A stretch of DNA of 40,156 nt from Shigella phage ESh23: sequence record ON528733. The stretch is one strand, 5' to 3'. Shown piece by piece: positions 5,801 through 39,479 of the stretch; within the stretch, counting starts at the first letter, position 1; every line of letters starts with the position of its first letter. The translations under genes were made by a program, and so were the position numbers. Below the pieces are notes generated by a model. It ran no database searches. It saw nothing but the letters and a program-made list of their open reading frames with translations, and had not been told where the DNA came from.

Positions 5801-6714
5801 TGACCGGAAGTAAGCGTAAGTTTGATGACCGCTGGTTGAAGACCGCTGGTATTTCGGACGAGCAGTGGAAGGGCATTAAGTCCCTCATCCGTGAGTCAGT
5901 GACTCGTGGTCCAGACGGGAAGTACACCATCAAGGATAAGAAGGCGTTCAGTCAGGACCCAAGGTCTATGGACCTCTGGCGTATGGGTGATGCCATCGCT
6001 GACGAGACCCTGCTCCGTCCGCACAAGCTGAGCAACATGGATGCCAAGGCGTATGGACCTCTGGCGAAGACTGTCTTGCAGTTTAAGAACTTCGTCATCA
6101 AGTCCATCAACGGTCGAACCATGCGTACCTTCTACAATGCCACCAAGAACAACCGAGCGATGGACGCTGCGCTGTCAACGGTTATGTCTATGGGTCTGGC
6201 TGGAATGTACTACATGGCTCAGGCGCACATCAAGGCTTACGCTATGCAGGACGGTCGTGACCGAGAGTATCTGAAGCAAGCCCTTAACCCGACAATGATT
6301 GGCTATGCTGCTCTGTCCCGTAGCTCCCACTTAGGTGGTCCTCTTGGGGTCGCCAACATTCTGGGCGGAATCGCTGGGTATGAGGACACTAAGATGCTCC
6401 GCTCGTCAATCCTTCCACGCTCACCTACCGAGAAACCTGAACGTGCTATTACCTATGGCGCTGCGAAGAGTGACCCGGTGATGAATGTGGTCGGTAACTT
6501 CCTTGAGCAGGTTCCGGCTTTTGGATACGCCGCTAACGTTGGTGCTTCGGCCTACAACTTGGCTGGATACCTGAAGGCTGATACCAGAGTGAACGAACGA
6601 GACTACATGACCGGGATGTATAACACTTTCCGAGAGCTGGTCCCGAACGACCCTATCACTCAGAAGCTCCTGTTGGGAACCTTTGAGGAACAAGGCATTC
6701 ACATCAAGGACTAA
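2818..6714 (+). CDS. internal virion protein D (T7 gp16-like), 1298 aa, with a divergent N-terminal domain
   Basis: From about residue 190 onward collinear with recalled T7 gp16 (e.g. TGGSPxNL, AGxIGAGVDPL, VRSPTGMQSGASGK, PHVY, ARRxNGDIAIMG motifs); first ~150 aa do not match the T7 transglycosylase domain. Confidence 0.9.
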   Translation: MATRGIRNNNIGNIRVSKDQWEGATGDDGSFVTFDTPDSGVRALAKNLMSYGRQGYDSIEKIINRWAPPSENDTQSYIYSVVAATGIPATQSIDLTNPDVLASLSEAIGYHETGSRYDPEVYKLGVSRALSGAGGITTKTPPVSANVFDALTEGLKSKPKVALGENLPGVTGMNIEGQEPEAPNESFGEMFYKSTGETLDQRADRSTWFGFGGAAEAEVKNSLVGVAVRAGQTEDSLDVIGDVFNPTRWNNHKWSREELDQIRNAGVLPQYYGVITGGSPQNLTELINLALENQKLDAEKAKAGTGAQLAAGVIGAGVDPLTYVPIAGQVGKGGKLVNKMFTVAAQSGALAGVSEIARTSVAGGDAHVAEAIMGGALFGGGMTAIGDALGKVLGKSTNEFAGPATRLEARETARNVDGQDLSRLPIREGEETFSHQGVKFADVPNEPGSVRLEDGSILIGENPLNPKTRQVFDEVIEPERAAAGVNLGGLTEIGLKLLRSENPEIRGLAADLVRSPTGMQSGASGKIGTTASDVFERLRAVDHRFYNDIDDAVTEALKDPYFQTNFNRDTGAFRQDIYQRVALAIEDGSGNLKSELTPGELKVYDLLKNQFDAKREMMENPAMFGRADAKTIFPGSRFKGTYVPHVYSNQMKELYIKELGSPEALQEAIKKSWLTSYASRPEVKARVDEALMEADPNLTPEGLAAAVDKYANDKAYGISHTDLFERSSVMEENINGLVGLENNNFLEARNLFDSDMSIILPNGQPFNVNSLREWDMDKIVPAYNRRVNGDIAIMAGTGKTTKEMKDAVETLMNRAGDDGKLKGEVSTLRDTLKILTGRARRDGADDAAFSTVMRTMTDLSFFAKNAYMGVQNLTEIGGMLARGNVRAMLHGIPIFRDLAFRSKKMGASEIKELHNVVFGKELDDSIRPSKQDVIDRLRAYSDLSKPVATALGSAKYYTGELAVRSPFTKVLNGTTNYLLDAGRQGFLSDIVEHSLTGSKRKFDDRWLKTAGISDEQWKGIKSLIRESVTRGPDGKYTIKDKKAFSQDPRSMDLWRMGDAIADETLLRPHKLSNMDAKAYGPLAKTVLQFKNFVIKSINGRTMRTFYNATKNNRAMDAALSTVMSMGLAGMYYMAQAHIKAYAMQDGRDREYLKQALNPTMIGYAALSRSSHLGGPLGVANILGGIAGYEDTKMLRSSILPRSPTEKPERAITYGAAKSDPVMNVVGNFLEQVPAFGYAANVGASAYNLAGYLKADTRVNERDYMTGMYNTFRELVPNDPITQKLLLGTFEEQGIHIKD

Positions 6715-6731
6715 ACTATCACTATAGGAAA
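6712..6731 (+). promoter_or_regulatory. phage RNAP promoter (phi17 position): TAAACTATCACTATAGGAAACG
   Basis: One of 12 copies of the conserved 17-19 nt motif; sits between gp16 stop and tail fibre start. Confidence 0.7.
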
Positions 6732-6781
6732 CGGGAGTGCTACCATAGGCTCCCATTTAATTCAACACTTAAGGAGGCCCA

Positions 6782-37062: not shown

Positions 37063-39432
37063 ATGCCACTTTACACGCAATCAATCAAGAACCTGAAGGG
37101 TGGCATTAGCCAACAGCCGGACATCCTGAGGTTCTCTGACCAAGGTGAACAGCAGATTAACGGCTGGTCATCCGAGAGTGATGGGCTTCAGAAGCGACCA
37201 CCGACCGTCTGGAAGAAAAGACTTTCAGCCGTGAACTGGGTCATCCCGAACAACGCTAAGTTCCACCTGATTAACAGGGACGAGAACGAGCAGTATTACA
37301 TCGTCTTCACAGGAAAGGAAATCATGGTCTTTGACCTTGAGGGGAACCAGTACGCTGTTTCAGGTGTAACGGACTACGTTAACACTTCCAAGCCGCGTGA
37401 CGACATCCGGGTCATTACAGTAGCTGACTACACGTTCGTGGTGAATCGCCGCACTGTGGTAGCTCAGGGTTCCACTAAAGCTAACCCTACGTACAACATG
37501 AAGAACCGCGCACTGATTAACCTTCGTGGTGGTCAGTACGGTAGATTGCTGAAAGTAGGGATTAATGGTGGGACAAAGGTTGGGCACCAGCTTCCTCCGG
37601 GAGATAACGCCAAAGATGACCCACCTAAAGTCGACGCTCAGGCTATCGGCAAGGCGTTAGTGGACCTGCTTGTCGTGGCCTATCCGAACTACACGTTCAC
37701 CCTTGGGTCTGGCTACATCGAGATTAAAGCCCCAGCAGGGACCAACATCAACTCGGTGGAGACTGAGGATGGTTATGCCAACCAGCTAATCAATGCTGTA
37801 CTTGATACTGTGCAGACTATCAGTAAGCTACCTCTGGCGGCACCTGAAGGCTACATCATCCGTATTCAAGGTGAGACCAACAGCTCAGCCGATGAGTATT
37901 TCGTGAAGTATGACTCAGCGAAGAAGACTTGGCGCGAGACTGTGGAGCCGGGTACTGTAACGGGATTCGACGCCTCAACCATGCCACACGCTTTGGTCAG
38001 ACAGGCAGATGGGAACTTTACGTTCCAGACCCTAGACTGGACTGAGCGTGGAGCTGGTAACGACGAGACCAACCCGATGCCGAGCTTCGTGAATTCAACG
38101 ATTAACGATGTGTTCTTCTATCGTAACCGATTAGGGTTCCTCTCCGGTGAGAACGTCATTATGTCCCGGTCCGCTGGATACTTTGCGTTCTTCCCTAAGA
38201 GCGTGGCGACCCTCAGTGATGATGACCCGATTGATGTGGCTGTGAGTCACCCTCGAATCTCCATCCTGAAGTATGCTGTACCGTTCGCAGAACAGCTACT
38301 GCTGTGGTCTGATGAGGTGCAGTTCGTGATGACCAGCTCCGGGGTACTGACCGCCAAGTCCATCCAACTAGATGTTGGCTCTGAGTTCGCTGTTAGTGAT
38401 AATGCGCGACCGTTCGCCATTGGACGTTCAGTCTTCTTCGCTGCCCCTCGCGGCTCGTTCACCAGTATTAACCGTTACTTTGCGGTGGCTGACGTTACGG
38501 ACGTGAAGGACGCAGACGATACGACCGGGCATGTGCTGTCCTACATTCCTAATGGAGTATTCGACATCCAAGGGTCCTCTACTGAGAACTTCATCACCGT
38601 GTCTACTGAGGGCGCTCCGAACAAGCTGTTCATCTACAAGTTCCTCTTCAAGGATGGCGTACAGCTTCAAGCCTCGTGGTCACACTGGGAGCTGGAGCAG
38701 GGCGAGCAGATTATGGCCTCAGCCTGTATCGGGTCCGCTATGTACATCGTGCGTAAGCATGGCTATGGCGTGGACTTGGAGAAGCTGGAGTTCATCAAGG
38801 AGACTGTGGACATCGCTGGCGAACCATGCCGCCTGCATCTTGACGGCAAAACCACTATGGTCATCCCGACTAACGCATTCAACCCTAACACATACACCTC
38901 GTCCTTCGACGTTGGCGCTGCCTATGGTGGAGTTTTCCCACCAGCAGGGAAGTACGTCATGGTAGACTCCAGTGGGCGATTCGTCCAACTGCCAGATACC
39001 GTATGGTCCAGCACTCGGTGGGTGACTGTGAAGGGGGACTGGTCAGGCAAGACAGTGTTCCTTGGTCGCGTCTATAAGTTCACCTACGCCTTCTCTCGGT
39101 TCCTCATTAAGTATGAAGACCAGAACGGGACGGTGACGGAAGACTCCGGTCGACTTCAGCTTCGCCGCGCTTGGGTGAACTATCAGCGAACTGGTGCTCT
39201 GGTGATGCGGGTCGTCAACCAGCACCGTGAGTTCCTGAACACGCTGAACGGCTACAAGCTGGGCCTACAGGACATCGGTCGGGTAAACATTGGTGACGGT
39301 CAGTTCAGGTTCCCAATGAACGGAGATGCTCTACACACTCGGTTAATCCTTGAGTCAGATTATCCGACCCCAGTGTCTATCGTTGGTTGCGGCTGGGAGG
39401 CTTCATATGCCCGTAAAGCCAAAGCTATCTAA
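37063..39432 (+). CDS. tail tubular protein B (T7 gp12-like), 789 aa
   Basis: QSIKNLKGGISQQPDILR, NGWSSE, GLQKRPP, HLINRDExEQYY, VTVADYTFVVNR, MPHALVR, SINDVFFxRNRLGFLSGEN, RLQLRRAWVNY, IxGCGWE. Confidence 0.96.
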   Translation: MPLYTQSIKNLKGGISQQPDILRFSDQGEQQINGWSSESDGLQKRPPTVWKKRLSAVNWVIPNNAKFHLINRDENEQYYIVFTGKEIMVFDLEGNQYAVSGVTDYVNTSKPRDDIRVITVADYTFVVNRRTVVAQGSTKANPTYNMKNRALINLRGGQYGRLLKVGINGGTKVGHQLPPGDNAKDDPPKVDAQAIGKALVDLLVVAYPNYTFTLGSGYIEIKAPAGTNINSVETEDGYANQLINAVLDTVQTISKLPLAAPEGYIIRIQGETNSSADEYFVKYDSAKKTWRETVEPGTVTGFDASTMPHALVRQADGNFTFQTLDWTERGAGNDETNPMPSFVNSTINDVFFYRNRLGFLSGENVIMSRSAGYFAFFPKSVATLSDDDPIDVAVSHPRISILKYAVPFAEQLLLWSDEVQFVMTSSGVLTAKSIQLDVGSEFAVSDNARPFAIGRSVFFAAPRGSFTSINRYFAVADVTDVKDADDTTGHVLSYIPNGVFDIQGSSTENFITVSTEGAPNKLFIYKFLFKDGVQLQASWSHWELEQGEQIMASACIGSAMYIVRKHGYGVDLEKLEFIKETVDIAGEPCRLHLDGKTTMVIPTNAFNPNTYTSSFDVGAAYGGVFPPAGKYVMVDSSGRFVQLPDTVWSSTRWVTVKGDWSGKTVFLGRVYKFTYAFSRFLIKYEDQNGTVTEDSGRLQLRRAWVNYQRTGALVMRVVNQHREFLNTLNGYKLGLQDIGRVNIGDGQFRFPMNGDALHTRLILESDYPTPVSIVGCGWEASYARKAKAI

Positions 39433-39458
39433 CTAATTGAATGGCCTATAGTTTCAAC

Positions 39459-39479
39459 TTAACTATCACTATAGGGACT
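39459..39479 (+). promoter_or_regulatory. phage RNAP promoter (phi13 position): TTAACTATCACTATAGGGACT, bracketed by a 9-bp inverted repeat (39443..39451 / 39478..39486)
   Basis: Conserved promoter motif; GGCCTATAG and CTATAGGCC read directly. Confidence 0.7.

Follow-up and report, generated by a model that had tools for sequence, protein, structure and literature searches.

Shigella phage ESh23 (record ON528733) carries twelve copies of a short repeat distributed over its 40,156-nt sequence, the whole of which was analyzed and is referred to below as the window. We are highly confident that these repeats are the full promoter set of the phage's own single-subunit RNA polymerase (RNAP), and that they belong to the K1F/Kayfunavirus specificity class. 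This promoter class is already described and biochemically validated, and the window is a new genome of a genus with that known class. The repeats can be identified as promoters because two of them equal a promoter validated in vitro for phage Ro45lw, and because the ESh23 RNAP is 98.2% identical to the Ro45lw enzyme and has the same specificity loop. Purified Ro45lw RNAP transcribes from ACTTAACTATCACTATAGGGACT, with a minimal promoter of ACTTAACTATCACTATAGGGA, and 5'-end sequencing of the products placed +1 at the first G (PMC12272871). Two stretches of the window, 12189-12209 and 39457-39477, are identical to this minimal promoter, which bears out the proposal of a first-pass annotation of the sequence that the repeats are phage-RNAP promoters. 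By analogy with the closely similar Ro45lw enzyme, transcription in ESh23 would start at the first G of the GG(G/A) triplet.

The set of repeats is well defined. A search of the whole window with TAAACTATCACTATAGG, allowing up to 3 mismatches, returned exactly 12 matches, all on the + strand and each with 0-2 mismatches, where chance would provide 0.06; none of 100 shuffles reached 12. The matches start at 6712, 12191, 16392, 19929, 21677, 22528, 24625, 27008, 31173, 33995, 34991 and 39459, just where the first-pass annotation had placed them. Alignment of the sites revealed a conserved 23-bp block, from -17 to +6, with the consensus RCTWAACTATCACTATAGGRA, and positions -16, -15, -13, -11 to -5, -1, +1 and +2 are invariant over all twelve. 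The segment from -12 to -8 reads ACTAT in all but one of the sites (GCTAT in the other), and +3 is G in five copies and A in seven. A 23-bp weight matrix built from the aligned sites (-17 to +6; 36 bits of information) scored them at 30.2-37.4 bits, again recovering the same twelve, and the next best sequence on either strand scored 11.8 bits. This gap argues that the site set is complete and sharply bounded, without a tail of weaker copies, and a low-threshold matrix scan of both strands for additional weak copies found none that was credible. A scan with the shorter core TCACTATAGG, allowing 1 mismatch, recovered 11 of the 12 sites along with one chance match on the - strand; the site that it missed, at 24625, carries two core changes.

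The promoters of the best-known relatives are absent. Scans of the window with the T7, T3, SP6 and K11 consensus sequences, at up to 3 mismatches, gave no matches, and so the phage has no second promoter type; conversely, every T7 promoter stays below 15 bits when scored with the window matrix. The claim that the consensus is distinct from those four is thus sound, and the accompanying description of its parts needs only some correction of register. The core was said to equal that of T7, and it does, over the block from -8 to +2 (TCACTATAGG), but the string CACTATAGG(G) spans -7 to +3 rather than -5 to +3 as had been numbered. The specificity region is indeed unlike that of T7, but -12 to -8 reads ACTAT, and the CTATC that had been assigned there occupies -11 to -7. 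Among the strings quoted for comparison, T7 CGACT and K11 GGGCA were in the right register, but T3 CCCTC was shifted by one base.

A distinct consensus might be taken to define a previously unseen RNAP specificity, as the first-pass annotation implied, and the ESh23 specificity loop does differ from that of K1F, at M750L and T765S. This reading is nonetheless very improbable. The implied novelty lacks support because K1F had been left out of the comparison with T7, T3, SP6 and K11, and the sites belong exactly to the known K1F/Kayfunavirus class. The K1F promoter and loop were taken from Table 2 of a large-scale mining study (PMC11880802) and from a scan of the K1F genome, which yielded 11 matrix matches of 27-37 bits with the same consensus and at corresponding gene boundaries; the site ahead of gene 5 alone is missing. 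In Ro45lw and SFP21A, all 12 sites are found at the same positions, including the same core variants. The consensus is identical in K1F, EcoDS1, Ro45lw, Sparklingdew and IMM-002, the loop is identical to that of the characterized Ro45lw enzyme, and exact copies of the 15-mer AACTATCACTATAGG are spread over more than 120 stretches of viral contig sequence, mostly from contigs of about 40 kb. A new specificity is therefore refuted by the Ro45lw biochemistry (PMC12272871), by the scan of K1F, and by the comparison of RNAP and sites with those of Ro45lw.

Prior descriptions of the class come from several directions. A T7 RNAP carrying a graft of the K1F loop (754S, 756N, 761V) recognizes promoters with ACTAT at -12 to -8 (PMC3458549; PMC11880802, Table 2), a Kayfunavirus genome paper reported eight CTWAACTATCACTATAGG repeats as promoters (PMC13298934), and a promoter logo common to IMM-002, K1F and EcoDS1 has been published (PMC6301781). 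The public records of EcoDS1 and Ro45lw annotate these sites as promoters; the GenBank records of K1F and Dev2 have no promoter features.

The enzyme that would read these sites is encoded by gene 1 (16488-19169, + strand; 893 aa), which matches T7 RNAP structures. The open reading frame 16443-19169 aligns end to end with the sequences of T7 RNAP crystal structures from its Met16 onward (E = 0, 1274 bits), which puts the true gene 1 start at 16488. The protein is 99.4% identical to the RNAP of SFP21A, 98.2% to that of Ro45lw (16 differences in 893 residues), 93.5% to that of K1F, and about 64% to those of T7 and T3. The specificity loop, equivalent to T7 residues 739-770, is YRKKDTTRLNLLFLGSFNLQPTVNKGSKKELD (18732-18827, + strand). 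Alignment with T7, T3, K11 and K1F showed that R746, N748 and Q758 are as in T7, and that the loop departs from T7 by R756N, Q754S, I761V, Q744T and M750L, in agreement with the prediction that this polymerase would have different specificity-loop contacts. At residues 748, 756 and 758, T3 has D/R/Q, K11 has K/N/K and the window has N/N/Q. The loop is identical in Ro45lw, SFP21A and Dev2, and that of K1F differs only at the two residues named above. A second DNA-reading element, the equivalent of the AT-rich recognition loop (T7 93-101), reads DGKSSTSRPSV (16764-16796, + strand) and has a 2-residue insertion compared to T7 and T3. This altered loop fits the upstream promoter block, which is ACTWA (C-16 and T-15 being invariant) and unlike that of T7, and it covaries with the promoter bases at -17 to -13 when the window group is compared to the group of phage GW1 (see below).

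A model for promoter recognition can be assembled by analogy with T7. In the crystal structure of the T7 RNAP-promoter complex, R746 contacts -7, Q758 contacts -8, R756 contacts -9, and N748 contacts -10/-11. These same four residues, R746, N748, R756 and Q758, have been described as responsible for sequence-specific recognition in the T7 complex (PMC11880802). The ESh23 RNAP would bind its 23-bp site with -17 to -5 as duplex, the AT-rich recognition loop reading -17 to -13 and the specificity loop reading -12 to -7, and would then melt the TATA at -4 to -1 and initiate at the first G. The pairing of R746 with the -7 C:G and of Q758 with the -8 T:A would be retained as in T7. The key change would be R756N, an Asn in place of Arg corresponding to an A:T pair at -9 where T7 has C:G, while residue 748 would read -11/-10 (C and T in the window) and the remodelled N-terminal AT-rich recognition loop would pair with the invariant C-16/T-15.

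The same analogy suggests a transcription program. Host RNA polymerase, starting from sigma-70 promoters near 13290-13470, would transcribe the early region through gene 1, and the phage RNAP would then generate rightward overlapping transcripts, with class II promoters (phi1, 1.1, 1.6, 2.5, 4 and 5) serving DNA-metabolism genes and class III promoters (phi6.5, 9, 10, 13, 17 and OR) serving virion and packaging genes, along with a Tphi-like terminator past gene 10. Candidate host sigma-70 early promoters were noted at 13292-13328, 13441-13470 and about 13621, and two such candidates, TTGACAGTAGGTCTAACTTTTGGTTTAATAGCTTCCG and TTGACAAGATGTGCCGACTTAAAGTAGTATG, have clear orthologues among the host RNAP promoters that the EcoDS1 record annotates. 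The Tphi-like terminator lies in the gap between genes 10 and 11 (36430-36473, + strand) and consists of a 17-bp hairpin followed by a U run (folding free energy, dG, -25.2 kcal/mol; z -3.8); it is at the position of T7 Tphi, and the Ro45lw record annotates a terminator there too.

Several considerations weigh against carrying the promoter assignment to this level of detail. The start sites, strengths and timing of the window promoters all rest on homology, and the residue-base contacts are carried over from the crystal structure of T7 RNAP bound to its promoter. Four sites are changed within -4 to -2 and one has G at -12, and the activity of these sites could be low. Furthermore, N748 is retained from T7 despite different bases at -11/-10, so that position 748 alone fails to explain that part of the specificity. 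For ESh23, the sites and where they lie, the sequence of the loop, the close match to an enzyme-promoter pair of known biochemistry and the covariation among relatives are direct observations; which residue contacts which base, how the promoters rank in strength and when they act are inferred by analogy with the better-studied enzymes.

The placement of the sites is that expected of promoters in a T7-like genome. All of them lie at gene-block boundaries, 0-151 nt past the upstream gene and 34-261 nt ahead of the next start codon. The gene order of the window is colinear with those of K1F and T7, and the sites therefore map onto T7 promoter positions, namely phi1.1, phi1.5/1.6, phi2.5, phi3.8/4, phi4.7/5, phi6.5, phi9, phi10, phi13, phi17 and phiOR, together with one additional site ahead of gene 1. 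In 6 of the 12 sites, the promoter TAA (-15 to -13 or -14 to -12) doubles as the upstream gene's stop codon; the shared triplets are at 6712-6714, 19929-19931, 22528-22530, 24625-24627, 27009-27011 and 33996-33998. In the descriptions that follow, numbering is in the T7 style, with +1 as the first G, and each site is given from -17 to +6; all are on the + strand.

The class II series begins with the site ahead of gene 1, here called "phi1" (ACTAAACTATCACTAAAGGACTC, 16390-16412, predicted +1 at 16407), which has an A variant at -2 and lies 81 nt upstream of the RNAP gene. The phi1.1-position promoter (TCTAAACTATCACTATAGGATTA, 19927-19949, predicted +1 at 19944) is followed by an RNase III-like hairpin. 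At the phi1.6 position (ACTAAGCTATCACTATAGGACAA, 21675-21697, predicted +1 at 21692; gene 1.6 is 34 nt on), the G variant at -12 is also found in K1F, Ro45lw and SFP21A, and the site is annotated as phi1.6 in Ro45lw. The phi2.5-position promoter (ACTAAACTATCACTTTAGGAACA, 22526-22548, predicted +1 at 22543) overlaps the gene 2 stop codon and has a T variant at -3; the corresponding position in K1F and Ro45lw reads CACTGTAGG. The phi4-position promoter (GCTAAACTATCACCTTAGGGATG, 24623-24645, predicted +1 at 24640), with C at -4 and T at -3, lies 56 nt ahead of the gene 4 primase/helicase, and K1F and SFP21A have the same variant. Finally, the phi5 promoter (GCTTAACTATCACTGTAGGATAG, 27006-27028, predicted +1 at 27023), ahead of the gene 5 DNA polymerase, has a G variant at -3; its orthologues are at 12462 in Ro45lw and 31045 in SFP21A, and K1F is without one.

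The first class III promoter is that at the phi6.5 position (ACTAAACTATCACTATAGGGACT, 31171-31193, predicted +1 at 31188), which is annotated as phi6.5 in Ro45lw. A degenerate copy, CCTAAGTTATGACTATAAGATAA (31200-31222, 11.8 bits), sits 29 nt downstream of the phi6.5 start and is kept in SFP21A, Ro45lw and K1F; with G at -7 and A at +1 (31217), it was judged to be probably non-functional as a promoter, and it may be part of a leader structure. The phi9-position promoter (GCTTAACTATCACTATAGGAACA, 33993-34015, predicted +1 at 34010) overlaps the gene 8 stop codon. The phi10-position promoter (ACTAAACTATCACTATAGGGAGA, 34989-35011, predicted +1 at 35006) has a T7-like GGGAGA start and lies 109 nt ahead of the major capsid gene; a promoter is annotated at the equivalent place in Ro45lw (20967-20989). 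The phi13-position promoter (ACTTAACTATCACTATAGGGACT, 39457-39479, predicted +1 at 39474) matches the tested Ro45lw fragment at 23 of 23 nt. At the phi17 position (ACTAAACTATCACTATAGGAAAC, 6710-6732, predicted +1 at 6727), the site overlaps the gene 16 stop codon, with the ATG of the gene 17 tail fibre 55 nt on, and orthologues are found at 32614 in K1F, 33584 in Ro45lw (annotated as phi17) and 11645 in SFP21A. The phiOR-position promoter (ACTTAACTATCACTATAGGGAAG, 12189-12211, predicted +1 at 12206) is 93 nt past gene 19, which encodes the terminase large subunit, and about 570 bp ahead of the terminal repeat, with orthologues at 38869 in K1F, 39059 in Ro45lw and 17124 in SFP21A.

The promoter ahead of gene 1 has no annotated phage-promoter counterpart at that position in the T7, T3 or K11 records. 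A phage-RNAP promoter directly upstream of the phage RNAP gene implies positive feedback, and the site was considered as a possible unnoticed autoregulatory feature. As a sequence feature it is not new, since the site is already annotated as "promoter phi" in EcoDS1 (NC_011042, 2244-2266) and is conserved across the genus. Indeed, it is present in every Kayfunavirus checked; it is conserved in K1F, Ro45lw, SFP21A, Dev2, LET1, MopsHU1, PRF-SP2, GA2A and EcoDS1, and also in the T3-type phages GW1 and SFP21B. We found no functional test of this promoter in the literature.

Another repeated element was noted near some of the promoters. It consists of TTAGACTCAAGGYC, a hairpin and GGYCTTTATGATTA, is found at 9785-9835, 19947-19990 and 27025-27065 and also at 16408 and 35022, and folds into a 10-13 bp stem. 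One copy directly follows the phi1.1 promoter, another the phi5 promoter, and a third separates genes 18 and 18.5; T7 and T3 have RNase III processing sites at these positions, those of T7 being R1.1, R4.7 and R18.5. The T3 record annotates R1, R1.1 and R1.3. No Rfam family was found in the window at the gathering threshold, and the leader hairpins thus have no independent label from Rfam.

Conserved hairpins downstream of several copies, and the position of one copy near the genome end, might suggest that the 23-bp repeats are some other cis element, involved in replication, packaging, RNase III processing or the binding of a regulator, rather than transcription start signals. We give this possibility almost no weight. 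The hairpins are downstream of the 23-bp repeat and outside of it, every copy is co-oriented with the genes and located at a gene-block boundary, and the repeat sequence equals a promoter validated in vitro. Furthermore, in GW1 and SFP21B the sites have changed in step with the RNAP loops that read DNA.

The interpretation of the repeats as a complete promoter set raises the question of the sites that depart from consensus. The first-pass annotation had listed the variants CACTTTAGG, CACCTTAGG and CACTGTAGG and ascribed them to class II promoters; all three are present, along with a fourth that it did not list, CACTAAAGG at 16392. Substitutions within -4 to -2 occur at the pre-gene 1, 2.5, 4 and 5 sites, that is, in 4 of 6 class II promoters versus 0 of 6 class III promoters (one-sided Fisher p = 0.03), so that the four variants all fall in the early and middle parts of the map, and the six late promoters (6.5, 9, 10, 13, 17 and OR) have none. 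By analogy with T7, the variant promoters would probably be weaker. In T7, the class II promoters show comparable departures from their consensus, and yet they are active.

A more extreme interpretation is that only the consensus copies are active, and that some or all of the five variants (16390, 21675, 22526, 24623 and 27006) are decayed or very weak. The changes do fall at -12 or within -4 to -2, and K1F lacks the gene 5 site altogether. We consider decay rather unlikely, however, since the same or similar variants, often with the identical substitution, are kept at the orthologous positions of SFP21A, Ro45lw, K1F and Dev2, and since the comparable deviations of T7 class II promoters are compatible with activity. 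In addition, the variant sites have been converted along with all of the others in GW1 and SFP21B, which argues for selection on them.

This conversion is part of a concerted difference among close relatives of ESh23. In GW1 and SFP21B, all 12 orthologous promoters read WWTAAACCCTCACTATAGG, with the T3-like ACCCT, so that -10/-9 is C,C and -16 is T or A. The RNAPs of these two phages (genes at 13334-16000 in GW1 and 20909-23575 in SFP21B) have D748/R756 and a different AT-rich recognition loop, and are about 92% identical to the window RNAP, while the genomes share the organization of the window and all 12 promoter positions. When their final 500 codons are compared, the window and GW1 RNAP genes differ by 118 synonymous and 11 non-synonymous changes, and 6 of the 11 are within residues 748-766; purifying selection thus prevails in this half of the protein, and its amino-acid changes are concentrated in the specificity loop. 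These changes provide strong comparative evidence, at the sequence level, that the residues from 748 to 766 read -10/-9. The covariation of promoters and RNAP also indicates that all 12 sites, variants included, are functional targets matched to the enzyme.

We tentatively suggest, as a possibility with clearly less than even chances, that Kayfunavirus holds two mutually exclusive polymerase-promoter codes, ACTAT/N748/N756 (the window, SFP21A, Ro45lw and K1F) and ACCCT/D748/R756 (GW1 and SFP21B), all 12 orthologous promoters and both DNA-reading loops of the RNAP having switched together in genomes that are otherwise about 91-93% identical. A single Shigella strain was the isolation host of both SFP21A (K1F-type) and SFP21B (T3-like). 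Provided that the codes are truly orthogonal in vivo, the difference would amount to a natural and recent specificity switch, one that could keep co-infecting relatives transcriptionally apart and would show the co-evolution of a dozen cis sites with one trans factor, with the window on the K1F-type side. The concerted switch is a clean natural data set for polymerase-promoter co-evolution, and is more interesting than the promoter finding itself. We did not find it described in the searchable literature, and a search for descriptions of promoters in SFPH2, SFP21A/B and GW1 found nothing relevant; the large-scale mining study (PMC11880802) may already contain it.

Taken as a whole, the window is the complete genome of a T7-like podophage in circularly permuted form. 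Relatives are classified in the Autographiviridae, Studiervirinae, Kayfunavirus (SFP21A, SFPH2 and GW1), and genome identity is about 95% to the Shigella phage SFP21A/SFPH2 relatives, about 92% to Shigella phage SFP21B and about 91% to Cronobacter phage GW1. The counterpart of the 190-bp Ro45lw terminal repeat lies at 12782-12969, where the window has one collapsed repeat copy, and it is from this match that the window can be recognized as circularly permuted, with the physical genome end near 12782. To the right of the terminal repeat, at 12990-13100, short ACCTACAGT(C) repeats follow one another in a series that resembles the arrays adjoining T7 terminal repeats. In the gene 17 tail fibre (6782-9280), similarity to the K1F tailspike is confined to about the first 247 residues (53% identity), and the receptor-binding part bears no relation to the K1F endosialidase, the usual kind of host-range module swap. 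Two records labelled as phages of Gram-positive hosts, PQ520054 ("Enterococcus phage IME_EF3", 7.8 kb) and OR786095 ("Staphylococcus phage MBBL139"), have an RNAP gene 95% identical to that of the window Kayfunavirus and are probably mislabelled or contaminated.

As it stands, the promoter finding touches no open question, and its value is mainly that of annotation, in that it fixes the transcription map of the phage, with its 12 promoters, its single terminator and its division into early, middle and late blocks. It also identifies the polymerase as K1F-type, a class that synthetic biology already employs as an orthogonal part and that also provides an enzyme for in vitro transcription.

The closest known systems are those of K1F, EcoDS1, Ro45lw, Sparklingdew and IMM-002, with which the window shares the consensus (A/C)CTWAACTATCACTATAGG and the ACTAT at -12 to -8. 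K1F and Ro45lw also share the RNAP triad N748/N756/Q758 together with S754 and V761, and the number and syntenic placement of the sites, including the one ahead of gene 1, are those of the K1F class. The differences from this class are trivial: -17 is mostly A or G in the window and often C in K1F, K1F lacks the gene 5 site and differs in the loop at M750L and T765S, and -2 of phi1 is A in the window, Ro45lw, SFP21A and Dev2 but T in K1F and EcoDS1. The engineered T7(K1F) polymerase (Temme et al. 2012; also the K1FR sigma fragment of Segall-Shapiro 2014) shares 754S/756N/761V and the same block from -12 to -7. It is, however, a chimera in which both the polymerase and the promoter have a T7 backbone, whereas the natural enzyme of the window also differs in the N-terminal promoter-binding loop, and its promoters differ at -17 to -13.

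The parallels with T7 itself are extensive, and include the 23-bp promoter from -17 to +6, an identical -8 to +2 block (TCACTATAGG), the GGGAGA start at phi10, the gene-relative positions of most sites, the Tphi-like terminator past gene 10, and the conservation of R746, N748 and Q758. The two systems differ at -12 to -9 (ACTA in the window versus CGAC in T7) and at -17 to -13 (ACTWA versus TAATA), and the RNAPs, which are 64% identical, differ by R756N, Q754S, I761V and the 2-residue insertion in the AT-rich loop. The window has 12 promoters compared to the 17 of T7, and lacks a promoter at the phiOL position but has one ahead of gene 1. The T3-type systems (T3, GW1 and SFP21B) have -12, -11 and -8 (A, C and T) and the core in common with the window, but are distinguished from it by C,C rather than T,A at -10/-9, by D748/R756 rather than N748/N756, and by T or A rather than C at -16.

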